Of a stretch of 64,000 nt of DNA, positions 5,106 to 64,000 are shown piece after piece. A model generated the notes under the pieces. That model was not told the DNA's origin. It ran no database searches and was given only the letters and a program-made list of their open reading frames with translations. The DNA comes from Escherichia coli (lineage in GTDB: Bacteria > Pseudomonadota > Gammaproteobacteria > Enterobacterales > Enterobacteriaceae): the NCBI RefSeq assembly GCF_965641715.1, contig NZ_OZ282453.1; one strand, 5' to 3'. A program made the translations under genes and the position numbers. Positions within the stretch are counted from its first letter, which is position 1. The number at the start of each line of letters is the position of its first letter.

Positions 5106-5934
5106 GACGATGCCCTCCGCTGATATTCAGGAAACGGTGAATATGAAGATTAGCCTTATCCGCCAGACGAATACGTTCAGCCTGCAAGTTAAGAAGGGTT
5201 TCTACCAGAACCTGATGCGCCTGCGGATCCGAAAGAGTTACCTTGCGCAGAGCACGTAGTGCAGTTGTTACATAGCTGAGTTTATGTAAGTCTTCATCAT
5301 TCAGACGAGTGAGGGCTGGGACAGTAGCCATGATGGCAGCCTCCGTATGCAATGGATAACTTCCACCACCGGAAACGCCAATTTCGCTGGTGGTGAACTG
5401 AGCAGGGTTGGCGTAACCGGCGCATACGGAAACCGGCGCACCTTTCGGTGCCCCCACCCAGCCCACCATAATTTGGGTATAGCTGAGTTGTAGCAACAAA
5501 AAAGACGCTAACGCGCCAATTGTCGCCGTATGCAATTCCAGGACGCCAATCCCGGCACCCGCTTTATAAGGTGCCTGAACAGTGTAACGTCCCGGAATGG
5601 CAGAATCAATGTGCTGGTGGTCCTTCACACTCAACAAAATCACGCCTGAATTTCCACAAAGGGCTAAAGCACTCATGCGGGTAGTCTTTGCGAAGATAGA
5701 TAACGCGCTGTGTTTCTGGTTCCCAACGAATAACATGGACATAAAGCCCTCTTCCGTCACGAAACCAGCGGTTAAGTTCCCGCACAACTCGCCCCCCACA
5801 GTCAGGTAAAGTTCTCTGTGGTTACTTACAGCCAGGTGATTTGGTAATCTGCATTCATGCCGTAACAACAGGTGTTCAGCGACACTGACCACCAGCTGTT
5901 GCGACAAACGGTTATTTGCCGTTAAACTGTTCAT
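5098..5934 (-). CDS. Hypothetical phage protein (early right operon)
   Basis: 278-aa ORF, co-oriented and overlapping neighbours; no motif recognised. Confidence 0.35.
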   Translation of the reverse strand: MNSLTANNRLSQQLVVSVAEHLLLRHECRLPNHLAVSNHRELYLTVGGELCGNLTAGFVTEEGFMSMLFVGNQKHSALSIFAKTTRMSALALCGNSGVILLSVKDHQHIDSAIPGRYTVQAPYKAGAGIGVLELHTATIGALASFLLLQLSYTQIMVGWVGAPKGAPVSVCAGYANPAQFTTSEIGVSGGGSYPLHTEAAIMATVPALTRLNDEDLHKLSYVTTALRALRKVTLSDPQAHQVLVETLLNLQAERIRLADKANLHIHRFLNISGGHRHA

Positions 5935-19735: not shown

Positions 19736-19905
<170 letters not shown>

Positions 19906-20028
19906 TAGTCTCCTGATGGACATTTTTCCAGCAATTACACATCAGGCGATAATTAACTATTGACGAAAAGCTGAAAACCACTAGAATGCGCCTCCGTGGT
20001 AGCAATTCTTTTTAAGAATTGATGGTAT

Positions 20029-20115
20029 GCGAAGGTGGCGGAATTGGTAGACGCGCTAGCTTCAGGTGTTAGTGTCCTTACGGACGTGGGGGTTCAAGTC
20101 CCCCCCCTCGCACCA
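20029..20115 (+). tRNA. leuQ: tRNA-Leu (anticodon CAG)
   Basis: 87-nt sequence GCGAAGGTGGCGGAATTGGTAGACGCG ... CCCTCGCACCA; anticodon loop CTTCAGGTG. Confidence 0.9.
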
Positions 20116-20143
20116 AAAACCACGTTGATATTGCTCGCACTGG

Positions 20144-20230
20144 GCGAAGGTGGCGGAATTGGTAGACGCGCTAGCTTCAGGTGTTAGTGTTCTTACGGAC
20201 GTGGGGGTTCAAGTCCCCCCCCTCGCACCA
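20144..20230 (+). tRNA. leuP: tRNA-Leu (anticodon CAG), one substitution relative to the flanking copies
   Basis: 87-nt copy; variable-arm difference GTGTTCTTACGG versus GTGTCCTTACGG. Confidence 0.9.
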
Positions 20231-20264
20231 AACGAGGCGATATCAAAAAAAGTAAGATGACTGT

Positions 20265-20351
20265 GCGAAGGTGGCGGAATTGGTAGACGCGCTAGCTTCA
20301 GGTGTTAGTGTCCTTACGGACGTGGGGGTTCAAGTCCCCCCCCTCGCACCA
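20265..20351 (+). tRNA. leuV: tRNA-Leu (anticodon CAG)
   Basis: 87-nt copy identical to the first. Confidence 0.9.
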
Positions 20352-49453: not shown

Positions 49454-49657
49454 ATGTTTGGTAACTTAGGACAGGCAAAAAAATATCTCGGCCAGGCGGC
49501 GAAGATGTTGATTGGCATTCCAGACTACGACAACTACGTCGAGCATATGAAGACCAACCATCCCGACAAGCCGTACATGAGCTATGAAGAATTCTTCCGC
49601 GAACGCCAGAACGCGCGCTACGGCGGCGATGGTAAAGGCGGTATGCGCTGTTGTTAA
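49454..49657 (+). CDS. yjiX: YjiX (DUF466 small protein)
   Basis: 67 aa ending GGMRCC; K-12 order btsT-yjiX-yjiA. Confidence 0.75.
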
Positions 49658-49667
49658 TGGAGAGAGC

Positions 49668-50624
49668 ATGAACCCGATTGCAGTTACCCTACTCACCGGT
49701 TTTTTAGGCGCGGGAAAAACCACCCTGCTGCGCCATATTCTTAACGAACAACACGGCTACAAGATTGCCGTGATTGAAAACGAATTCGGCGAAGTCTCCG
49801 TTGATGATCAACTGATTGGCGACCGCGCCACGCAGATCAAAACGCTGACCAACGGCTGCATCTGCTGTTCGCGCTCCAACGAGCTGGAGAACGCGCTACT
49901 CGACCTGCTGGATAATCTCGACAAGGGCAATATTCAGTTCGATCGTCTGGTCATTGAATGCACCGGCATGGCCGATCCTGGCCCGATTATTCAGACCTTT
50001 TTCTCCCATGAGATTTTATGCCAGCGCTACCTGCTGGACGGCGTGATTGCGCTGGTGGATGCGGTACATGCCGATGAGCAGATGAACCAGTTCACCATCG
50101 CCCAGTCCCAGGTTGGCTACGCCGACCGTATTCTGCTGACTAAAACCGACGTCGCAGGCGAAGCAGAAATACTGCGTGAACGTCTGGCACGCATCAACGC
50201 CCGTGCACCGGTCTACACCGTCACCCACGGCGACATCGACCTGGGCCTGCTGTTCAACACTAACGGTTTTATGCTGGAAGAAAACGTCGTCAGCACCAAA
50301 CCGCGTTTCCACTTTATCGCGGATAAACAAAACGATATTTCGTCGATTGTGGTGGAACTGGATTACCCGGTAGATATCAGCGAAGTTTCCCGCGTGATGG
50401 AAAACCTGCTGCTGGAATCGGCGGATAAACTGCTGCGTTACAAAGGGATGCTGTGGATTGACGGCGAACCTAATCGCCTGCTGTTCCAGGGCGTCCAGCG
50501 CCTCTACAGCGCCGACTGGGACCGCCCATGGGGCGATGAAAAACCGCATAGCACGATGGTGTTTATCGGGATTCAGTTGCCGGAGGAAGAGATTCGGGCG
50601 GCGTTTGCGGGGTTGAGGAAGTAA
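49668..50624 (+). CDS. yjiA: CobW/COG0523-family GTPase YjiA
   Basis: 318 aa from MNPIAVTLLTGFLGAGKTTLL (Walker A); CxCC motif GCICCS. Confidence 0.8.
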   Translation: MNPIAVTLLTGFLGAGKTTLLRHILNEQHGYKIAVIENEFGEVSVDDQLIGDRATQIKTLTNGCICCSRSNELENALLDLLDNLDKGNIQFDRLVIECTGMADPGPIIQTFFSHEILCQRYLLDGVIALVDAVHADEQMNQFTIAQSQVGYADRILLTKTDVAGEAEILRERLARINARAPVYTVTHGDIDLGLLFNTNGFMLEENVVSTKPRFHFIADKQNDISSIVVELDYPVDISEVSRVMENLLLESADKLLRYKGMLWIDGEPNRLLFQGVQRLYSADWDRPWGDEKPHSTMVFIGIQLPEEEIRAAFAGLRK

Positions 50625-52050: not shown

Positions 52051-54483
52051 ATGGCGGAACTGAACCTAAGTAACCTGACGGAAGCAGACATCATTACCAA
52101 ATGCGTTATGCCAGCCATTCTCAATGCAGGCTGGGACAACACAACGCAAATCAGACAGGAGGTCAAACTCCGGGACGGTAAAGTCATCGTACGTGGTAAA
52201 GTTGCGGCACGCAGAACGGTAAAATCTGCTGACATCGTGCTGTACCACAAGCCAGGCATTCCCTTAGCCGTGATTGAAGCAAAAGCCAACAAACATGAAA
52301 TTGGCAAAGGGATGCAACAGGGCATTGAATATGCGCGCCTGCTGGACGTTCCTTTTGTTTTTGCCACCAATGGTGATGGCTTTATCTTCCGCGATGCCAC
52401 CGCAGCTGAAGGTGAATGCCTTGAAAAGCAAATAACGCTGGATGACTTCCCCTCCCCCGCTGAACTCTGGCAAAAATTCTGCCTCTGGAAAGGATACACA
52501 CAAGCTCAGCTTCCGGTGATTACTCAGGACTATTACGACGATGGTAGCGGTAAATCGCCTCGTTATTATCAACTTCAGGCAATCAACAAAACCATTGAAG
52601 CCGTCTCCAACGGGCAAAACCGCGTTCTGCTGGTCATGGCGACCGGAACAGGGAAAACCTATACCGCATTCCAGATCATCTGGCGCCTGTGGAAATCAAA
52701 AAATAAAAAACGCATTCTGTTCCTTGCCGATCGCAACATTCTGGTCGACCAAACCAAAAATAATGATTTCCAGCCATTTGGTACGGCAATGACCAAAGTC
52801 AGCGGACGCACCATTGATCCCGCTTATGAAATTCACCTCGCGCTCTATCAGGCTATAACTGGCCCGGAGGAAGACCAAAAAGCGTTTAAACAAGTCGCAC
52901 CAGATTTCTTCGATCTGATCGTGATCGACGAATGCCATCGCGGCAGCGCATCCGAAGACAGCGCCTGGCGAGAGATCCTTGATTATTTCAGTTCCGCCAC
53001 CCAAATTGGCTTAACCGCCACGCCAAAAGAGACGCATGAAGTCTCCAGCACGGATTACTTCGGCGATCCGGTTTACGTCTACTCGCTAAAAGAAGGGATC
53101 GAAGACGGCTTCCTCGCCCCTTATAAAGTTGTCCGTGTTGATATTGATGTTGATCTGCAAGGCTGGCGCCCAACCAAAGGGCAAACTGACTTAAACGGCG
53201 AAGTGATCGACGATCGTATCTATAACCAGAAAGATTTCGATCGCACGATGGTAATCGACGAACGCACAGAACTGGTTGCCAGAACCATTACCGACTACCT
53301 CAAGCGCACCAATCCGATGGATAAAACCATCGTCTTCTGTAACGACATCGATCATGCAGAACGTATGCGCCGCGCCCTGGTTAATCTCAACCCGGAGCAG
53401 GTGAAAAAGAACGACAAATACGTCATGAAAATCACCGGCGATGATGAAATTGGCAAAGCTCAGTTGGATAACTTCATCAACCCGAAAAAACCGTACCCGG
53501 TTATCGCGACCACTTCAGAGCTGATGACCACCGGTGTGGATGCTAAAACCTGCAAACTGGTAGTACTGGACCAGAACATCCAGTCGATGACCAAATTCAA
53601 GCAGATTATCGGTCGTGGTACACGCATCGACGAACGTTACGGCAAACTCTGGTTTACCATCCTCGACTTTAAAAAAGCCACCGAACTGTTTGCCGATGAG
53701 CGTTTCGATGGCATTCCCGAAAAAGTCATGGATACCACACCAGAGGATATCGCCGATCCAGACTCTGATTTTGAAGAGAAACTCGAAGAAATCAGCGAAC
53801 ATGTCGACGAACAGGTAACAGGCGTTGATGAACCGCCTGCGCCACCATACCAGGTTAAAGATACCGATGATGTCGGCCCACTTCCGGAAGAAGACGAGAA
53901 GAAAATCCGCAAGTTTCACGTCAACGGTGTAGCGGTGGGCGTTATTGCCCAGCGTGTTCAGTATTACGACGCCGACGGTAAACTGGTTACCGAATCCTTT
54001 AAAGATTACACTCGCAAAACACTGCTCAAAGAATATGCCTCGCTGGATGACTTTACCCGCAAGTGGCAGGACGCCGATCGCAAAGAAGCGATCATTCACG
54101 AGCTGGAGCAACAGGGGATCATCTGGGAAGTACTGGCAGAAGAAGTCGGTAAAGATCTCGACCCATTCGACATGCTTTGCCACGTAGTGTATGGTCAGCC
54201 GCCGTTAACCCGCAAAGAGCGCGCCGAGAACGTGCGCAAGCGGAACTACTTCACAAAATACTCTGAAGCAGCGCAAGCCGTGCTCGATAATCTGCTGGAT
54301 AAATACGCCGATGCGGGCGTACAGGAGATCGAAAGTATTCAGGTGCTGAAACTTAAGCCATTCGACAGCATGGGCACCTTACCGGAGATTATTAAAACCG
54401 GATTTGGCGACCGTAACGGGTATAATCAGGCGCTCAGCGAGCTGGAAAACGAAATCTACCAATTACCGCCCCGCTCTGCTTAA
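52051..54483 (+). CDS. hsdR: Type I restriction enzyme R subunit (non-EcoKI size class)
   Basis: 810 aa; PD-(D/E)xK-like N-terminus; helicase motif [14 protein letters not shown] and motif II DECHRG. Confidence 0.85.
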
Positions 54484-54549
54484 CAACTCTCTTTTGTGCC
54501 TTCTGCAACCATCATGTTGCAGAAGGCCTTGTTTTTCATGGAATACAAC

Positions 54550-56019
54550 ATGTCTATCAGCTCAGTAATCAAATCATTACAAGATATTATGCGCAAAGAT
54601 GCCGGTGTGGACGGCGATGCGCAGCGTCTCGGTCAGCTCTCCTGGCTGCTATTTTTGAAAATCTTCGATGCCCAGGAAGAGGCGCTGGAACTGGAGCAGG
54701 ATAACTATCAATATCCGATCCCACAGCGTTATTTGTGGCGCAGTTGGGCCGCCAACGCGCAGGGCATTACCGGTGATTCCCTGCTGGAATTCGTTAATGA
54801 TGATCTGTTCCCGGCGTTGAAAAACCTCACTGCGCCTATCGATAAAAACCCACGCGGCTACGTGGTAAAGCAGGCGTTCAGCGATGCCTATAACTATATG
54901 AAAAACGGTACGCTACTGCGTCAGGTGATCAACAAGCTGAACGAAATTGACTTTACCAGCGCCAGCGAACGCCATCTGTTTGGTGATATTTACGAACAGA
55001 TCCTTAAAGATCTGCAATCTGCGGGCAATGCTGGCGAATTCTATACTCCACGCGCCGTCACTCGCTTTATGGTGGATCGCGTCGATCCGAAACTCGGCGA
55101 ATCCATTATGGACCCGGCCTGCGGTACGGGCGGTTTTCTTGCCTGCGCATTTGATCATGTAAAGAACAAATACGTGAAGAGCGTCGCCGATCATCAGACG
55201 CTGCAACAACAGATCCACGGTGTTGAGAAAAAACAGCTTCCGCACCTGCTGGCGACCACCAATATGCTGCTGCACGGCATTGAAGTACCGGTACAAATTC
55301 GTCACGACAACACCCTGAACAAACCGCTTTCCTCCTGGGATGAACAACTGGATGTCATTGTTACCAACCCGCCGTTTGGTGGCACGGAAGAAGATGGTAT
55401 TGAGAAGAACTTTCCAGCAGAGATGCAAACCCGCGAAACGGCGGATTTGTTCCTGCAACTGATTGTGGAAGTACTGGCGAAAAACGGTCGCGCGGCGGTG
55501 GTATTGCCGGATGGCACACTATTTGGCGAAGGCGTTAAAACCAAAATCAAAAAGCTACTTACCGAAGAGTGCAACCTGCATACCATCGTGCGCTTACCGA
55601 ATGGTGTGTTTAACCCCTATACCGGCATTAAAACCAACCTGTTGTTCTTTACCAAAGGTCAGCCAACCAAAGAGATTTGGTTCTATGAGCATCCGTATCC
55701 GGCGGGCGTGAAAAACTACAGCAAAACCAAGCCGATGAAGTTTGAAGAGTTTCAGGCGGAGATCGACTGGTGGGGTAACGAGGCCGATGGTTTTGCCAGC
55801 CGCGTCGAGAATGAGCAAGCGTGGAAAGTCAGCATTGATGACGTGATTGCGCGTAACTTCAATCTGGATATTAAAAACCCACATCAGGCGGAAACCGTCA
55901 GCCATGATCCGGACGAACTGTTAGCGCAGTATGCAAAGCAACAGGCGGAGATCCAGACGCTGCGTAATCAACTGCGCGATATTCTCGGCGCTGCGCTGTC
56001 TGGCAAGGAGGTTAACTGA
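54550..56019 (+). CDS. hsdM: Type I restriction-modification N6-adenine methyltransferase M subunit
   Basis: Motif IV NPPFGG; SAM-binding DPACGTGGFL; start could be 54496 or 54538. Confidence 0.85.
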   Translation: MSISSVIKSLQDIMRKDAGVDGDAQRLGQLSWLLFLKIFDAQEEALELEQDNYQYPIPQRYLWRSWAANAQGITGDSLLEFVNDDLFPALKNLTAPIDKNPRGYVVKQAFSDAYNYMKNGTLLRQVINKLNEIDFTSASERHLFGDIYEQILKDLQSAGNAGEFYTPRAVTRFMVDRVDPKLGESIMDPACGTGGFLACAFDHVKNKYVKSVADHQTLQQQIHGVEKKQLPHLLATTNMLLHGIEVPVQIRHDNTLNKPLSSWDEQLDVIVTNPPFGGTEEDGIEKNFPAEMQTRETADLFLQLIVEVLAKNGRAAVVLPDGTLFGEGVKTKIKKLLTEECNLHTIVRLPNGVFNPYTGIKTNLLFFTKGQPTKEIWFYEHPYPAGVKNYSKTKPMKFEEFQAEIDWWGNEADGFASRVENEQAWKVSIDDVIARNFNLDIKNPHQAETVSHDPDELLAQYAKQQAEIQTLRNQLRDILGAALSGKEVN

Positions 56020-57776
56020 TGAGTGTGGAAAAGCTGATCGTTGATCATATGGAAACCTGGACCTCGGCGTTGCAAACCCGTTCCACCGCCGGGCGCGGCA
56101 GCTCCGGTAAGATTGATTTGTATGGTATTAAGAAATTGCGTGAGCTGATTCTGGAACTGGCGGTGCGCGGTAAACTGGTGCCGCAGGATCCGCATGATGA
56201 ACCGGCGTCGGAGCTGCTGAAGCGTAATGAAGAACGGAAAAAAGAATTAGCGCGCAATAATGGTATGAAAACCACAGCAAGCACTAATATCCATGGAAAT
56301 GAATATTATATCGATACCCCCGAAAAGTGGTCATGGATAAGACTTGGTAATTTAGCTAAATTCATCGATTACCGAGGAAAAACACCACATAAAAAAGAAA
56401 ATGGTATAAGGCTTATAACAGCAAAAAATATCAGAAAGGGCTATATTGATCTCAATCCAGAAGAGTTCATATCTGAAGAAGATTACATATCATGGATGAC
56501 AAGAGGCTTTCCTAAATGTGGTGATATTTTATTCACAACTGAAGCACCACTGGGGAATGCAGCGATTATTGATTTAGACGGAAAGTTCGCTCTTGCTCAA
56601 CGTTCTATCTGTTTTCAATGGCATACTCCAGAGATAAGCCCTTTTATGCTTATTCAAATCCTGGCGATCCCCTTCCAGTCACAACTAAGTGACAAATCTA
56701 CAGGCATGACCGCAACAGGAATAAAAGCGTCTAAGTTAAAAGAGATCCCTGTTATTTTACCACCTTACCAAGAACAAATACGTATTGTATCCAAAGTACA
56801 GGAGTTCATGTCCCTATGTGACCAACTGGAACAGCAATCCCTGACCAGTCTGGACGCACATCAGCAACTGGTTGAAACCCTGTTGGAAACACTTACAGAC
56901 AGCCAAAACGCCGAGGAACTGGCTGAAAACTGGGCGCGTATTAGCGAGCATTTCGACACCCTATTTACCACTGAAGCCAGCGTGGATGCGTTAAAACAGA
57001 CCATTCTGCAACTGGCCGTAATGGGTAAACTTGTGCCGCAGGATCCGAATGACGAACCAGCCTCTGAACTGCTCAAACGAATTGCGCAGGAAAAAGCTCA
57101 ACTGGTGAAAGAAGGGAAAATAAAAAAACAAAAACCGTTGCCGCCAATTAGCGATGAGGAAAAGCCGTTTGAACTGCCGGAAGGTTGGGAGTGGTGTCGA
57201 TTGGGTTCTATTTATAATTTTTTAAATGGATATGCCTTTAAAAGTGAGTGGTTTACCTCTGTCGGTTTACGTTTATTGCGGAATGCTAACATTGCTCATG
57301 GAGTTACCAATTGGAAAGATGTTGTACATATACCAAATGACATGATATCCGATTTTGAAAATTATATTTTGTCAGAAAATGATATTGTTATTTCATTAGA
57401 CAGACCAATTATTAATACCGGGTTAAAATATGCTATCATTAGCAAATCAGATTTACCCTGTTTACTGCTCCAACGAGTAGCAAAATTTAAAAATTATGCA
57501 AACACTGTGTCTAACTCCTTCTTGACAATATGGTTGCAATCTTATTTCTTCATAAATTCAATTGATCCTGGAAGAAGTAATGGAGTTCCACATATATCTA
57601 CGAAACAGTTAGAGATGACACTATTTCCTCTTCTACCGCAAAGTGAACAAGATCGTATTATTTCAAAAACGGATGAATTAATACAAACCTGTAATAAACT
57701 GAAATATATTATCAAAACCGCCAAACAAACCCAACTGCACCTTGCAGACGCACTGACTGACGCAGCGATAAACTAA
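56019..57776 (+). CDS. hsdS: Type I restriction-modification specificity subunit with two AT-rich target-recognition domains
   Basis: 585 aa; duplicated conserved spacer (ELAVRGKLVPQDPHDEPASELLKR and LAVMGKLVPQDPNDEPASELLKR) flanking low-GC variable regions. Confidence 0.8.
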   Translation: MSVEKLIVDHMETWTSALQTRSTAGRGSSGKIDLYGIKKLRELILELAVRGKLVPQDPHDEPASELLKRNEERKKELARNNGMKTTASTNIHGNEYYIDTPEKWSWIRLGNLAKFIDYRGKTPHKKENGIRLITAKNIRKGYIDLNPEEFISEEDYISWMTRGFPKCGDILFTTEAPLGNAAIIDLDGKFALAQRSICFQWHTPEISPFMLIQILAIPFQSQLSDKSTGMTATGIKASKLKEIPVILPPYQEQIRIVSKVQEFMSLCDQLEQQSLTSLDAHQQLVETLLETLTDSQNAEELAENWARISEHFDTLFTTEASVDALKQTILQLAVMGKLVPQDPNDEPASELLKRIAQEKAQLVKEGKIKKQKPLPPISDEEKPFELPEGWEWCRLGSIYNFLNGYAFKSEWFTSVGLRLLRNANIAHGVTNWKDVVHIPNDMISDFENYILSENDIVISLDRPIINTGLKYAIISKSDLPCLLLQRVAKFKNYANTVSNSFLTIWLQSYFFINSIDPGRSNGVPHISTKQLEMTLFPLLPQSEQDRIISKTDELIQTCNKLKYIIKTAKQTQLHLADALTDAAIN

Positions 57777-57996
57777 TTCCCTCGCCCTCAAAAAACCAAT
57801 AAAGCGGCTAAATAGCCGCTTTATTCACATCACCAAAAATTATATTTCACGCTAAACTTCATCTTATTTTCATTAATTTTTAGCTGGACTTCCCCTGTAT
57901 TTACTGATGATATATCCAGGTATTTAGCGCGGTGCGGATGTGCGCCAACACACCCGCACCGCTAATCACAATCCCTATTTCTAAGGAATAGTAATC

Positions 57997-58338
57997 ATGA
58001 CTGACACGCATTCTATTGCACAACCGTTCGAAGCAGAAGTCTCCCCGGCAAATAACCGTCAATTAACCGTGAGTTATGCGAGCCGCTACCCGGATTACAG
58101 CCGTATTCCCGCCATCACCCTGAAAGGTCAGTGGCTGGAAGCCGCCGGTTTTGCCACTGGCACGGCGGTAGATGTCAAAGTGATGGAAGGCTGTATTGTC
58201 CTCACCGCCCAACCCGCCGCCGCCGAAGAGAGCGAACTGATGCAGTCACTACGCCAGGTGTGCAAACTGTCGGCGCGTAAACAAAAGCAGGTGCGGGAAT
58301 TTATTGGGGTGATTGCGGGTAAACAGAAAGTCGCCTGA
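57997..58338 (+). CDS. symE: SOS-induced toxin-like protein SymE
   Basis: 113 aa starting [34 protein letters not shown]; matches recalled K-12 SymE; adjacent to hsdS as in K-12. Confidence 0.8.
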
Positions 58339-58384: not shown

Positions 58385-60478
58385 TTATACCAAGGCGCTC
58401 TCCATCTGTTTTTCAAATGCCTGACGAATTAATCCCATAATGTAAGGAAGTTGTGCGAGGTCACTGAAACCAATTTCCACATCACCATTACCCCAGCGCC
58501 CAACATTTGTCACATCTTTGGCAATACCTTTCGGATCGACCAGTTCATGAAACTGCATATTAAGCGACAATCGCAGTCGGCTTTTTTGCGGCACAACATC
58601 AACAAAATTCGTTTCCGCTTTAAACGCAATATATAGCTTCAATACTTCCTGCGTGATCCCTGCGTCCAGGCGCATAACTTCATCGCGAAGATGATCGAAT
58701 AACACCCGGCTATGCGAACCATCAGCAAGAAAAGGATAATCACTCAGGCTGTAACTGGTTTTGTTTTCAGGCTGTCCCCGATAAACAGCTAAAACCTCTT
58801 CAGGAAGAGAAGGCGCTTGCCAGACCTGAACCGCGAGATCGGCCAGACGATCGGCTCGGGCGTGAATGGCGGCTTCATCCCATTTTTCGCACTGTCCAAG
58901 ACCGATATTCAAATAGAGCGGGCTATGCTTAAAGCCGTCTTCAATATCGCGTTTTTCTGCGAAAGGTCTGTCACTGTAACGGGAGTTATAGCGCGTTAAA
59001 GTGAGATTCCCCAACGTATGCAACAGTTCTTTATGAATACGCTGCCAGTCGCTTCCCAGCTCTTCGCGCCATTTAGCCGACAAATTTTCGTTCTGCGGCA
59101 TAATATGTTCAATCGTAAACTCTTCCACGCGCTCTCTGCGTTTATCGTTTTCCAGTCGTCGTAACCAGTAGCTGCGACTACGGAAGTTATAGAGATCGCG
59201 AACTTTTAATTCCCGTTTAAATTCATCATCGTTGGGGAAACGACGATATGAAGGTAGATTCAAAAAATGTACCTGAATACTTTCCAGATAATTTTCTTTA
59301 TTAATAACTTTATAAAAAGTGGCAAATGTCTTGTTCAAAGAATTTGTCGGAATTGCACATACTGCACGGCGGAAAACATAAGATTCAATTAAACGAATTA
59401 TGCTCAGGAAATCTTCGTGAGACAAAACGCCATTTTTATAGTCATGATAAAGCGCCAGTAAGAAAGGATACACCACATCGACCTTTAACTCGCGCAAATC
59501 CTGAAAAGCCGTAGCAAGCAATTTGTCACTTTCTTTTCCCAATGCCATTGCACAGTAATACTCCGCGTAGATATGAATATCTTCAACCAGCCGATCTACG
59601 CCTTTTTCAGCAACACTCTGGCTGCGGGCATGGAGTTTAAATGCCTCATAGACTTCATCTGTCCGAGGGATCTCCCCCGTTTTTACCGTCAGATAATGAC
59701 GCATAAAACTGTCAAAATATTCGCTGTAACCTTGCTGACCAAAGGCGACTTCCATTGGACGCCAGTGATCTTCATACAACCGGGTTTGATGCTCTGGTTC
59801 GAGGCCCATCAGAATAAAATTGCGCACCAGATCGGCCTGACTTAACGCCTTACCGGTGGAGTTCATACTTTCAAAAATCAGTTGCGGATTATCCTGACCA
59901 CGATTAAGCGCCACATCGACAATTAATAACTTTGCTAACCCACGACATAAGGGGATCAAGTCATCACCGAGTTTGGCAATTTGTTCATCAAAGAAAGTAA
60001 AGTTTTCCATTATTCGATGGGAATAGTTTTCTGGCATTGGTCTTTGTTTTATTAACGCCAGTAAACTGTCTTTATCAGTCTCGGTCAGCAGTAATTTAAA
60101 ACCTTTCTCGCCGGACTCATAAGGATTGAGCAAATAATAATTACGCAATTTCATTGCCGAAAAGCCATCAAAAACTTCGTCTTCGCCAAGATGGCGCGAT
60201 AAAGCCTCAATCAGCAACATTGCGGTCGTCAGCCGCTGCTGACCATCAATGACCAGCAACGGAGAAATACCAGAAACCTGATACAATCCCTGCTCTATAT
60301 AAACAACCGAACCGATAAAATGCGCTGATATATCGTCACGCTTTCCTGCACGAATGATGTCGTCCCAAAGTTGCCGACATTGTTGCCCGGTCCATGAATA
60401 AGTCCGTTGATAAATGGGAATAACAAACTGCTGCGAACGTTTTAAAAAATCGAGTAGGCGAGCTTCTGTAGCTTTCAT
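58385..60478 (-). CDS. GmrSD-family type IV (modification-dependent) restriction endonuclease candidate (DUF262 plus DUF1524)
   Basis: 697 aa; N-terminal DUF262 motifs (IPIYQRTYSW, DGQQRLTT); C-terminal His-Me finger-like TIEHIMPQ. Confidence 0.65.
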   Translation of the reverse strand: MKATEARLLDFLKRSQQFVIPIYQRTYSWTGQQCRQLWDDIIRAGKRDDISAHFIGSVVYIEQGLYQVSGISPLLVIDGQQRLTTAMLLIEALSRHLGEDEVFDGFSAMKLRNYYLLNPYESGEKGFKLLLTETDKDSLLALIKQRPMPENYSHRIMENFTFFDEQIAKLGDDLIPLCRGLAKLLIVDVALNRGQDNPQLIFESMNSTGKALSQADLVRNFILMGLEPEHQTRLYEDHWRPMEVAFGQQGYSEYFDSFMRHYLTVKTGEIPRTDEVYEAFKLHARSQSVAEKGVDRLVEDIHIYAEYYCAMALGKESDKLLATAFQDLRELKVDVVYPFLLALYHDYKNGVLSHEDFLSIIRLIESYVFRRAVCAIPTNSLNKTFATFYKVINKENYLESIQVHFLNLPSYRRFPNDDEFKRELKVRDLYNFRSRSYWLRRLENDKRRERVEEFTIEHIMPQNENLSAKWREELGSDWQRIHKELLHTLGNLTLTRYNSRYSDRPFAEKRDIEDGFKHSPLYLNIGLGQCEKWDEAAIHARADRLADLAVQVWQAPSLPEEVLAVYRGQPENKTSYSLSDYPFLADGSHSRVLFDHLRDEVMRLDAGITQEVLKLYIAFKAETNFVDVVPQKSRLRLSLNMQFHELVDPKGIAKDVTNVGRWGNGDVEIGFSDLAQLPYIMGLIRQAFEKQMESALV

Positions 60479-60574
60479 TCTGACGTCTTTCCGTGAAACG
60501 ATGATTTCGCAATAATAACCACTTCCTTGTGGAGGTTATAGAGAAATCCTGTTTATCCGCGACGAACATACCCC

Positions 60575-60739
60575 TCACTCCACATCCTCCCTGCGTAACC
60601 CAATATCCCTCAACCGCTCATCACTCATCTGCTGTAACACTCGTCGGGTCTGCATTTGCCACCGCCAACGCCTCATCGCCTGCCAGAGTTGCACAAGTCT
60701 GATAAACGGCGTTTTGGCTTTGTTTTCGTGAAATTCCAT
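60575..60739 (-). CDS. yjiS: DUF1127 small protein YjiS
   Basis: 54-aa ORF MEFHENKAKTPFIRLVQLWQAMRRWRWQMQTRRVLQQMSDERLRDIGLRREDVE; below the ORF-track size cut-off. Confidence 0.55.
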   Translation of the reverse strand: MEFHENKAKTPFIRLVQLWQAMRRWRWQMQTRRVLQQMSDERLRDIGLRREDVE

Positions 60740-60915
60740 CTGCTGCCTCCTCATCTTTCAGAGGCTTCATCATCCGCCTTCTGGCAGTTCACAATACAGA
60801 TGCAAATATTAGTTTTATTTAACATACAGACAGGTTAAAACAGCATCTGCATCCGGTTTTTTAGCTTCATCTGTACCGGTTTTTCTCTCTGTATGGTCTA
60901 AATAAGGAATACAGC

Positions 60916-62328
60916 ATGACGCGTTATCAACATCTGGCAACTCTGCTTGCCGAGCGGATTGAGCAAGGGCTGTATCGTCACGGGGAGAAATTGCCGTCGG
61001 TGCGCAGCTTAAGTCAGGAGCACGGCGTCAGCATCAGCACCGTGCAGCAGGCGTATCAGACGCTGGAGACGATGAAGCTCATCACTCCGCAGCCGCGTTC
61101 GGGGTATTTTGTCGCACAACGTAAAGCCCAGCCGCCAGTGCCGCCGATGACGCGTCCGGTGCAGCGCCCGGTGGAAATTACCCAGTGGGATCAGGTACTG
61201 GATATGCTGGAGGCGCATAGCGACAGTTCCATTGTTCCGTTAAGCAAAAGCACGCCGGATGTCGAAACGCCCAGCCTGAAACCACTCTGGCGGGAGCTAA
61301 GCCGGGTGGTACAGCATAATCTGCAAACCGTTCTCGGTTATGACTTGCTAGCCGGTCAGCGGGTATTGCGCGAGCAGGTTGCCCGCCTGATGCTCGACAG
61401 CGGCTCGGTGGTCACCGCCGATGACATCATTATCACCAGCGGCTGCCATAACTCGATGTCGCTGGCGTTAATGGCGGTGTGTAAACCGGGCGATATTGTC
61501 GCGGTCGAATCCCCCTGTTATTACGGTTCGATGCAGATGCTGCGCGGCATGGGCGTGAAAGTGATTGAAATCCCAACCGATCCAGAAACTGGCATCAGCG
61601 TTGAAGCGCTGGAACTGGCGCTGGAACAGTGGCCGATTAAAGGCATCATTTTGGTGCCAAACTGTAATAATCCGCTGGGATTTATTATGCCGGACGCGCG
61701 CAAACGGGCCGTTCTCTCTCTCGCTCAGCGTCATGATATTGTGATTTTTGAAGATGATGTCTACGGCGAACTGGCAACGGAGTATCCGCGCCCGCGGACC
61801 ATTCATTCATGGGATATCGACGGGCGAGTGCTGTTGTGCAGCTCGTTCAGTAAAAGTATTGCTCCAGGCCTGCGCGTGGGTTGGGTCGCACCGGGGCGTT
61901 ATCACGATAAACTGCTGCATATGAAATACGCCATCAGCAGCTTTAATGTGCCGTCCACGCAAATGGCGGCAGCAACGTTTGTGCTGGAAGGTCACTATCA
62001 TCGCCATATCCGGCGGATGCGGCAGATCTATCAGCGCAATTTGGCGCTTTATACCTGCTGGATACGGGAATATTTTCCCTGCGAAATCTGTATTACGCGC
62101 CCGAAAGGCGGATTTTTACTGTGGATAGAATTGCCTGAACAGGTCGATATGGTCTGCGTCGCGCGGCAGCTGTGCCGCATGAAAATCCAGGTGGCGGCAG
62201 GCTCGATTTTCTCAGCTTCCGGCAAATACCGTAACTGCCTGCGCATCAACTGCGCTTTGCCGCTCAGCGAAACCTATCGCGAAGCACTGAAGCAAATTGG
62301 CGAGGCCGTGTATCAGGCAATGGAATGA
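60916..62328 (+). CDS. yjiR: MocR-family regulator (GntR HTH fused to aminotransferase-like domain) YjiR
   Basis: 470 aa; N-terminal GntR HTH and class I aminotransferase-like body. Confidence 0.8.
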   Translation: MTRYQHLATLLAERIEQGLYRHGEKLPSVRSLSQEHGVSISTVQQAYQTLETMKLITPQPRSGYFVAQRKAQPPVPPMTRPVQRPVEITQWDQVLDMLEAHSDSSIVPLSKSTPDVETPSLKPLWRELSRVVQHNLQTVLGYDLLAGQRVLREQVARLMLDSGSVVTADDIIITSGCHNSMSLALMAVCKPGDIVAVESPCYYGSMQMLRGMGVKVIEIPTDPETGISVEALELALEQWPIKGIILVPNCNNPLGFIMPDARKRAVLSLAQRHDIVIFEDDVYGELATEYPRPRTIHSWDIDGRVLLCSSFSKSIAPGLRVGWVAPGRYHDKLLHMKYAISSFNVPSTQMAAATFVLEGHYHRHIRRMRQIYQRNLALYTCWIREYFPCEICITRPKGGFLLWIELPEQVDMVCVARQLCRMKIQVAAGSIFSASGKYRNCLRINCALPLSETYREALKQIGEAVYQAME

Positions 62329-62444
62329 ATTCGAATCAGTGGCGAGGCCCCTGATTTCCTCTCACGAATCGCCTGTGACTCGTTTTATCTTTGCAGGGGC
62401 ATCACCACGTTCCAGCATGGCTTAGGCAAAGTGTGCTTTGTTCA

Positions 62445-62545
62445 TACCGGATGCGGCGTGAACGCCTTATCCGGCTTACAAATCGCGCAAATTCAATAGA
62501 TTGCAGAGGTAATGTAGGTCTGATAAGCGTAGCACATCAGGCAGC
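62445..62545. repeat. REP/BIME elements
   Basis: CCGGATGCGGCGTGAACGCCTTATCCGG and GTAGGTCTGATAAGCGTAGCACATCAGGC units. Confidence 0.55.
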
Positions 62546-62569
62546 TTTGCGTTTGTCATCAGTCTCTGA

Positions 62570-63514
62570 TTAGTACTCGATCCATGGATCGCGCTTGCTT
62601 TCAGGCAAGGGTTGCTCTAATGCCTGCATTTGCTCTGCCGAAAGTCCAGTATATCGTTGTATCCATTCAGGATCCGCACCGTTCTGCAAAAGCAATCTAA
62701 GGAGGCGTTGTTCCCCTTCTTCTTTCCCCTTTTCCATCCCTAACAGCCATCCATCATTATGAATTCGCTCTGCAATCGTCATTATTCGCTCCCTGTGTTG
62801 TGGCATTCGACGGGTAAGTTCACTGATAAACTCATTAAAACGCGCTTCATCGCCAGTCAGTAAAATGTAATTTAACAGCGCGGTTATCTGGCTGTCATTA
62901 GCGCACCCTGTAACCAGTAATACTGCCAGTTGATCAATAAGCCCCATTAGATCGCGCTGGCGAATATGCTTTTGGATCAACTCCAACAGGGCGACTCTGC
63001 GGTGCTGCACAATCTCGTCGTCTGGCACGACAGTGATATCCACCAGCGGGAACGCGGCATTATAAAGTTTCCGTGCGGTAGTCGGGTCGGCAAATTCGTC
63101 CAGCCAGCACAGGGACCAGGGGTAAGGACTACGGCTACCGTGATAAAACAGCATCGGGATGACCAGCGGTAGCTGCCGGCGTTTATCATGCTCGATATGG
63201 CGCTGCATCACCGCCATGGAATAGCGCATCAGGCGAAACGCCATATGAATATCCTCGCGGCTCTGATGTTCAATCACTACGTAAATATAACCATCACCTT
63301 CACGGGTCTTTACCGACCACAGAATATCGGAGTGTAGCGCCCGCAATTTTTCATCGACAAAGCTGGCTGACTCCAGTTTTAAGCTGTCGAGATCGCACAG
63401 TTCACGTAAATCTTTGGGTAAGTGGATCTCCATAAAATCCCGCGCGGTGTCAGGGTGAGTGAGAAAGGATTTAAATAATGCGTCATGTGGCGTGCTGGTC
63501 GTGAAGTTTGTCAT
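62570..63514 (-). CDS. rpnD: Rpn-family recombination-promoting nuclease (YhgA-like), apparently intact RpnD
   Basis: 314-aa uninterrupted ORF; corresponds to the K-12 yjiP/yjiQ locus. Confidence 0.65.
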
Positions 63515-64000
63515 GGCGATCCGTCACCTGTAGATAAGATGGCCCGACTTTAGCGACTAACAAAACCATTCTCACCCGGCAATTTCTCGTTCCCCGAGGT
63601 GCTTTCCAGGCTATTTTTGTTCGTCTGCAAACGATACATTTTTCCGGAAACAGGCTCGCGTTTTACATTTCCTGTACCCGGCAGATATTCCCCTTTCCAC
63701 CGCGCTCTTTTGATTAACCGCAAATTTTAATTACACTTAAGGTGTATATTTTCTATGCAACCCATCAATTAAAGAGGTGTAATGTGCTGATGACTATTTG
63801 TAATCGTTATACATTCTGACCTGGAGTCAGAAGGTATTTCTCTGTCTGTGTGTTCACAGGCAGTGTGATTGATTACATGAAATTCAGTACATTTGCCCTT
63901 CTCGCCTGCCTTTCGTCATTACCGACGGTATTGAATTTCGTTTTCCCCGTTGGGGTTCTCCGGACAAGGAGTTGTTTGTTATGCCACGTTTTTTTGCCCG

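Follow-up and report, generated by a model that had tools for sequence, protein, structure and literature searches.

In the stretch of Escherichia coli DNA analysed here (64,000 nucleotides, referred to as the window), the interval between yjiR and mdtM carries an intact rpnD gene that is, in all likelihood, a functional module of a long toxin form (RpnD-L) and a short form (RpnD-S) at the edge of a defence island. Its reading frame is open, the catalytic residues are retained, orthology and synteny are those of rpnD, an internal methionine with a ribosome-binding site (RBS) is conserved, and its alleles differ in repeat number. The gene is real, was correctly read in the preliminary description of this DNA, and is already known. 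In effect, because the K-12 stop codon, the activity of the repaired gene, the internal antitoxin and the hypervariability of the repeats have all been published, and the protein is in RefSeq, there is nothing new in this copy, and it opens no new question. Its value lies mainly in correct annotation, as a strain with a complete RpnD toxin–antitoxin module, unlike K-12, BL21 and O157:H7.

Genomic position and family assignment

The preliminary description had proposed an uninterrupted 314-aa Rpn/YhgA-like ORF adjoining yjiR. The list of ORFs and the matches to Pfam and NCBIfam bear this out in coordinates, length, family and neighbour (Table 1). The Pfam profile PF04754 (Transposase_31/YhgA-like) is aligned over positions 1-202 of 203 with E=8.4e-87 and 290 bits (cutoff 21), and TIGR01784 of NCBIfam (Rpn family recombination-promoting nuclease/putative transposase) scores 172 bits (cutoff 52). 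Such matches are far beyond chance, and the predicted protein is assigned on this basis to the Rpn/YhgA-like family (PF04754, TIGR01784, COG5464). There are 8897 representative clusters at E<=1e-3, and the set used for conservation consisted of 91 near-full-length, diverse representatives taken from clusters at 50% identity.

Table 1. Features of rpnD and of the neighbouring region, in window coordinates
Feature	Position	Strand	Remarks
yjiA	49584-50624
ORF, 333 aa	50942-51943	−	TTG start; between yjiA and hsdR
hsdR	52051-54483		type I restriction-modification (R-M), EcoEI-type C-terminal domain
hsdM	54496-56019
hsdS	56019-57776
symR	57926-58002	−	sRNA
symE	57997-58338
GmrSD-type type IV restriction enzyme	58385-60478	−	DUF5655 tail
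yjiS	60575-60754	−
yjiR	60916..62328	+	GntR and aminotransferase domains (Pfam)
rpnD, full-length ORF (RpnD-L, 314 aa + stop)	62570..63514	−	ORF list; ATG start; predicted nuclease toxin form
Predicted RpnD-S from Met245 (70 aa + stop)	62570..62782	−	in-frame internal ORF; intragenic antitoxin candidate
Three 4-aa repeat units, residues 259-270	62705..62740	−	from 14 residues after Met245; hypervariable specificity region
GGAG, Shine-Dalgarno-like motif	62789..62792	−	6 nt upstream of Met245 ATG
Candidate internal sigma-70-like promoter	62869..62898	−	ATGACA-18 nt-TAAATT, TG-extended; ~87 nt upstream of internal ATG
YhgA-like/Transposase_31 domain, residues 8-210	62885..63493	−	Pfam coordinates; holds D11, D63, E82-H83-Q84, R94, PDDE 164-167
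Codon 104	63203..63205	−	CAG (Gln) in window, TAG (amber) in K-12; DNA alignment, translation, 61-mer comparison
mdtM	starts at 63982	+	on the other side of rpnD from yjiR

Between yjiR and the ORF are 241 nt. The order yjiS–yjiR–rpn–mdtM in the window is that of K-12, and the arrangement yjiR–rpn–mdtM was found in 3556 complete E. coli genomes with a 1.7-kb query around the gene. The protein is identical to RefSeq WP_000181175.1, which is annotated in the nearest genome, that of strain A16, and is recorded on 237 contigs; its cluster at 90% identity has 3918 member sequences. In K-12, the paralogue RpnA (YhgA), which is the biochemical exemplar of the family, is encoded at a different locus (feoC–rpnA–bioH) and is 60% identical to the window protein overall. 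Synteny, together with 94.9% nucleotide identity to K-12 rpnD as against this 60% amino acid identity to RpnA, marks the window gene as the RpnD orthologue and not as a paralogue.

Database names for this family, such as "putative transposase", "Transposase_31" and "ISNCY family transposase" (PF04754 and PRK09956), would suggest an ISNCY-type or other insertion-sequence transposase. This reading was rejected, and it is extremely improbable. Neither terminal inverted repeats nor target-site duplications were found flanking the gene, and in thousands of genomes it sits at one fixed site, flanked by yjiR and mdtM, with one copy in each (median 1 place). Furthermore, the window protein scores below the cutoff of PRK09956, the RpnA equivalog model (about 391-395 against 583), and Zhong et al. 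(2023) saw no evidence of autonomous transposition; nor is any autonomous transposase known with this fold.

The intergenic regions on both sides of rpnD have features of their own. Between yjiR and rpnD lies a REP/BIME-like repeat (62424-62565) with many matches per genome, and a 1.7-kb query that includes it matches a median of 17 places per genome; over this region, the identity to K-12 is as low as 81.7%. On the other side, ytiE, an ORF of 11 aa (VLMTICNRYTF; 63784-63819, +), matches K-12 exactly. It overlaps a terminator-like hairpin (63814-63832) located ~150 nt upstream of mdtM and resembles a leader peptide or attenuator.

The premature stop codon of K-12

According to the preliminary description, K-12 carries a disrupted copy of this gene, and both annotation and sequence agree. 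The orthologue in the K-12 strain BW2952 is a pseudogene flagged "internal stop", and that of MG1655 is annotated as "rpnD, b4584, pseudogene" (4568998-4569918). Alignment and translation locate an in-frame TAG at codon 104, and this change from CAG alone accounts for the pseudogene status of K-12 rpnD. The name yjiQ presumably denotes the downstream half of the split K-12 gene. It is known that yjiP was renamed rpnD by Kingston et al. (2017), a paper in which the name yjiQ does not occur. The same authors reported the premature stop and used a repaired gene, "rpnDcomplete", in all experiments (Kingston et al. 2017, Table S1 footnote); thus, both the defect of K-12 rpnD and its repair had already been published. 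With repaired K-12 RpnD, CFU fell by 94%, SOS induction was among the earliest, and RecA-independent recombination rose 4.7-fold (Kingston et al. 2017). Amber suppression was considered as the main source of this activity, as the hosts carry glnX44, and was rejected because the authors state that the stop codon was removed.

Apart from the stop codon, the window and K-12 genes share their position between yjiR and mdtM, the catalytic residues, the internal Met245 and the GGAG motif that precedes it. Over codons 1-244, they are 94.9% identical in nucleotides and 97.5% in amino acids. By contrast, the part that corresponds to RpnS is only 68.6% identical as protein; in this part, the window gene is longer by two 4-aa repeat units (24 nt) and has a C-terminal tail that differs from the …PERERYSWLKS of K-12. 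At the DNA level, identity to K-12 is 98.0% for yjiR, 94.9% for the toxin-only part of rpnD, and 86.7% plus a 24-nt indel for the RpnS part. In the first 255 codons, there are 28 synonymous and 7 non-synonymous differences, one of the latter being the amber codon, and this ratio of 28:7 is consistent with purifying selection on rpnD.

Catalytic residues and predicted structure

Whether the frame encodes a working enzyme depends in part on residues that have been defined by mutagenesis in RpnA. RpnA loses all phenotypes through D11A, D63A, E82A or Q84K, and its phenotypes are altered by R94A and Q84A; replacement of D165 in the PDDE motif (D165A) makes it hyperactive (Kingston et al. 2017). In the window protein, D11, D63, E82, H83, Q84, R94 and P164-D-D-E167 are all present, numbered as in RpnA. 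This is a PD-(D/E)xK-type set in which a family-specific Q replaces K, and its columns are conserved in 80-89 of the 91 family representatives (at least 88%). The catalytic residues and PDDE are invariant between the window protein and RpnA, and the alignment to the K-12 gene identifies the amber codon as the lesion of that strain. Thus, no inactivating substitution was found among the residues defined in RpnA (D11, D63, E82, Q84, R94 and D165). Truncation was not observed either: the ORF covers the whole Pfam domain and the full length of intact orthologues, those of UTI89, ERL06-2503, A16 and Nissle, which span 306-318 aa. The open frame and intact catalytic residues support the cautious suggestion of the preliminary description that this strain may retain a functional nuclease.

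The structure predicted by AF2 from an alignment of the 91 representatives (pLDDT 91.4, pTM 0.75) replaced a run on a 5-sequence alignment, which reached a pLDDT of 55.8 and was left unused. The model appears to have an αβββαβ core, as in restriction-endonuclease-like folds, with strands at residues 40-47, 62-70 and 73-83, a helix at 91-110 and a further strand at 117-125. In this core, D63 is on the second strand, and E82 and Q84 are on the third. A long helix (238-277) and two short ones (282-289 and 293-300) form the C-terminal part. A Foldseek search with the model gave no significant match.

The window protein has further similarities to RpnA. The internal start is in the same MTIAER motif (M244 in RpnA, M245 in the window), and a C-terminal architecture of three helices is common to both. 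By contrast, the window protein has a segment, from H252 to the end of the second 4-aa repeat, that is missing in K-12 RpnA, which also ends 13 residues earlier. It has been shown in vitro that RpnA is a Mg2+-dependent DNA endonuclease (Kingston et al. 2017). By analogy with RpnA and with repaired K-12 RpnD, we infer that the window protein would have nuclease activity.

The predicted internal start and RpnS antitoxin

The preliminary description overlooked that rpn is a gene-within-gene with an internal antitoxin, RpnS. It is known that rpn genes encode a toxic long protein, RpnL, and a short C-terminal antitoxin, RpnS, that is translated from an internal start (Zhong et al. 2023). In the case of RpnA, RpnA-S is translated from Met244, off an internal transcript, and an internal transcription start site has been found in all five K-12 rpn genes (Zhong et al. 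2023). The specificity between L and S is set by hypervariable 4-aa repeats that start 8-20 residues after the internal methionine; each repeat has a single hydrophobic residue, the others being charged or Gly, and the number of copies varies by strain (Zhong et al. 2023). Neutralisation by the cognate RpnS has been shown for RpnA, RpnB, RpnC and RpnP2, and phage defence for RpnP2 only (Zhong et al. 2023). RpnP2, which is plasmid-borne (ECOR13) and protects against T-even phages and BASEL #40, is the only Rpn for which such protection has been shown; it belongs to the same family and follows the same L/S gene-within-gene logic (Zhong et al. 2023), and its likeness to RpnD is drawn here from its description.

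In the window, Met245 lies in the conserved MTIAER motif and is aligned to Met244 of RpnA, a validated internal start. It is preceded by the 20 nt CACAACACAGGGAGCGAATA. The column of Met245 is occupied by Met in 82 of the 91 family representatives, and the family consensus from the internal methionine reads MTxAxxLxxxGxxxGxxxGxxxGxxx. The GGAG motif is retained in the window, K-12, A16, Nissle, CT30, BL21, UTI89 and 51489, and is AGAG in the ERL06/O157 alleles. In addition, the crystal structure of RpnA-S (PDB 7TH0), a dimerisation domain of three helices, begins exactly at the internal methionine. A search of PDB with the single window sequence gave no match, and the link to 7TH0 required the family profile, which includes the window protein and recovered the structure over positions 246-305 with E=2.7e-7. 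The long helix at 238-277 and the two short helices in the AF2 model match the description of RpnA-S (Zhong et al. 2023). The window gene carries all the sequence hallmarks of an intragenic RpnL/RpnS toxin–antitoxin system, namely an internal methionine with an RBS, the repeats and a 7TH0-like domain. The gene rpnD is better described as a two-product toxin–antitoxin gene (RpnL/RpnS) of a defence island than as a "recombination-promoting nuclease" alone.

The internal promoter candidate (Table 1) is a lead only, because the scan for the sigma-70 consensus found 2 sites in the region where 2.6 were expected by chance.

Repeat-number alleles

The sampled intact alleles of RpnD vary by whole 4-aa units, from 1 to 4. 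The shortest form, of 306 aa, is found in UTI89, in 51489 and, if its stop codon is read through, in K-12, with the repeat region …HNDG-YIK-GEQR…. ERL06-2503 encodes 310 aa (WLL-GREE-GEQR), the window and A16 have three units and 314 aa, and Nissle 1917 has 318 aa (WLL-GRER-GRKE-GKEE-GEKS). The match length in ST131 is 957 nt, as in the Nissle class. There are also two types of C-terminal tail, one of them similar to …PERERYSWLKS; the window carries the other. The intact alleles WP_000181180.1 (Nissle), WP_000181144.1 and WP_000181195.1 are 92-96% identical to that of the window and share its locus and architecture, differing only in repeat number and tail type. Against the window allele, protein identity is 97% over residues 1-244 and only 64-88% in the RpnS part. 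This variation in repeats and RpnS is the published hypervariability pattern (Zhong et al. 2023) and is not new.

It is conceivable, if rather doubtful, that RpnD in E. coli falls into mutually orthogonal L/S specificity classes, defined by the number of repeats and the type of tail, with the window in the three-repeat class. Lesions that destroy L and keep S might then leave orphan antitoxins, which would give immunity against the same class or be exploited by phage. The RpnD-S frame is kept in four of the lesions described below: the amber at codon 104 in K-12, those of CT30 and MB52, and the 25-nt duplication of O157:H7. This S-sparing pattern is not distinguishable from chance, because five lesions were examined and ~78% of the gene is toxin-only.

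Proposed mode of action

From the features of the window gene and from the published systems, the following sequence of events may be proposed. RpnD-L, of 314 aa, would be a Mg2+-dependent DNA endonuclease of the PD-(D/E)xK type with little sequence specificity. If unrestrained, it would damage the chromosome, induce SOS and kill the cell, with an increase in RecA-independent recombination as a by-product. RpnD-S, of 70 aa, would be made in the same frame from Met245 and would fold into a domain of three helices, the first of them long and bearing the three 4-aa repeats. It would pair with the segment of RpnD-L that has the same sequence and so keep the nuclease inactive, with the number of repeats deciding which L a given S can neutralise. 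A trigger such as phage infection might then shift the S:L balance and free the nuclease, resulting in a defence of the abortive-infection type. In K-12, the toxin form has been lost through the single CAG→TAG mutation. For the window allele itself, we infer expression, nuclease activity, neutralisation of L by S and a role in defence.

Distribution in E. coli and lesions

In general, rpnD is common in the species, being present in 4242 of the 5426 complete E. coli genomes. An exact match to the K-12 61-mer with the TAG is found in 338 genomes, of which the sampled ones are mostly laboratory derivatives of K-12, and at least one base of this 61-mer is different in BL21, strain C and wild isolates. 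Match lengths were tallied in 60 evenly spaced genomes: 52 of them have in-frame lengths, a measure in which point nonsense mutations are invisible, and at least 3 of these are K-12 amber alleles. Among the 52, the length is 957 nt in 20, 945 nt in 14 and 933 nt in 1, with the rest of the 921-nt type. The other 8 genomes comprise 6 frameshift lengths, 1 insertion and 1 remnant of 106 nt. An intact rpnD appears to be the usual state in E. coli and K-12 the exception, which refines the contrast with K-12 drawn in the preliminary description and has been published before (Kingston et al. 2017, Table S1 footnote).

Independent lesions were found at several sites of the gene. In O157:H7 (Wll001; L006, 1133-1182), a 25-nt tandem duplication starts at the internal ATG. 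It frameshifts the long form after D254 and leaves the second ATG in frame with an intact RpnS of 66 aa. This restored RpnS frame may be an orphan antitoxin. A count of the duplication with a 70-nt junction query (2364 genomes at least 80% covered) was discarded, as two overlapping pieces were joined in genomes that lack the duplication. CT30 has a frameshift near codon 133, and in BL21, IS1 is inserted after codon 255 (L008, ~1386-1444). MB52 has an insertion of ~125 nt near codon 151 (L003, 2731-2869), which resembles an ERIC element. In MB50, the match is split into two pieces, and this strain probably carries the same insertion. Finally, in Ec-050 (L011), the whole yjiA–mdtM interval is gone, next to an IS1 remnant.

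Repeated inactivation in K-12, BL21, O157:H7, CT30, MB52 and Ec-050 would be expected if the window frame were open and the gene nevertheless silent or decaying, with the long form unexpressed or crippled by substitutions at sites other than the known catalytic ones; RpnS alone, or nothing, would then matter. In line with this, the scan for promoter consensus found no convincing site upstream of the full-length rpnD ATG, and in MG1655, neither RpnA-L nor RpnD-L could be detected under the conditions used (Zhong et al. 2023). Low basal RpnL is, however, what is expected of a toxin. The 28:7 ratio relative to K-12, the N-terminal domain that is 97% identical across alleles, the retention of all residues defined by mutagenesis and the occurrence of an identical protein on 237 contigs also argue against silence or decay, which is an unlikely account of the window gene. 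A functional L/S module is the preferred reading.

The defence island next to rpnD

The window features located upstream of yjiR (Table 1) are those of the "immigration control region", a defence island whose borders are yjiA and yjiN. Its three toxin–antitoxin systems, according to an EcoSal review of 2025, are rpn, brnAT and symE/symR. The 2023 library of PADLOC has no model for Rpn and hence gives no defence-system call for rpn. The 333-aa ORF next to hsdR has no match in Pfam, even at E<=1, and none in PADLOC; thus, it is an unannotatable gene of the island. Identity between the window and strain A16 is 99.3% from 60571 to 64000, but their R-M islands are unrelated. Because an A16-like flank abuts an unrelated island, a recombination breakpoint is placed at ~60571, ~2 kb from rpnD.

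The proximity of this breakpoint, in a highly recombining region that rpnD adjoins, and the 4.7-fold effect of repaired K-12 RpnD would also fit a gene whose main role is RecA-independent recombination and horizontal gene transfer instead of phage defence as a toxin–antitoxin system. Nevertheless, deletion of all four active rpn genes left basal recombination unchanged, and the effect of RpnD required overexpression and tracked with DNA damage. As RpnS, the repeats and the association with a defence island are explained by the toxin–antitoxin and defence model, a primary role in recombination is quite improbable, and the toxin–antitoxin reading is retained.

As an RpnD module at the border of a restriction and defence island, the window gene could aid resistance to phage or recombination driven by DNA damage. 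In addition, a natural, full-length allele with three repeats is a convenient substrate for asking whether RpnD acts like RpnA, RpnC and RpnP2.

Other features of the window

Far from rpnD, matches in Rfam to the C4 antisense RNA and to isrK, which are prophage-type RNAs, are found at 5386-5574 (−), and suggest a prophage or a remnant of one near the start of the window. A naRNA4 (CssrE) element is found at 19807-20348 beside a tandem array of three tRNA genes, annotated in A16 as tRNA-Leu.
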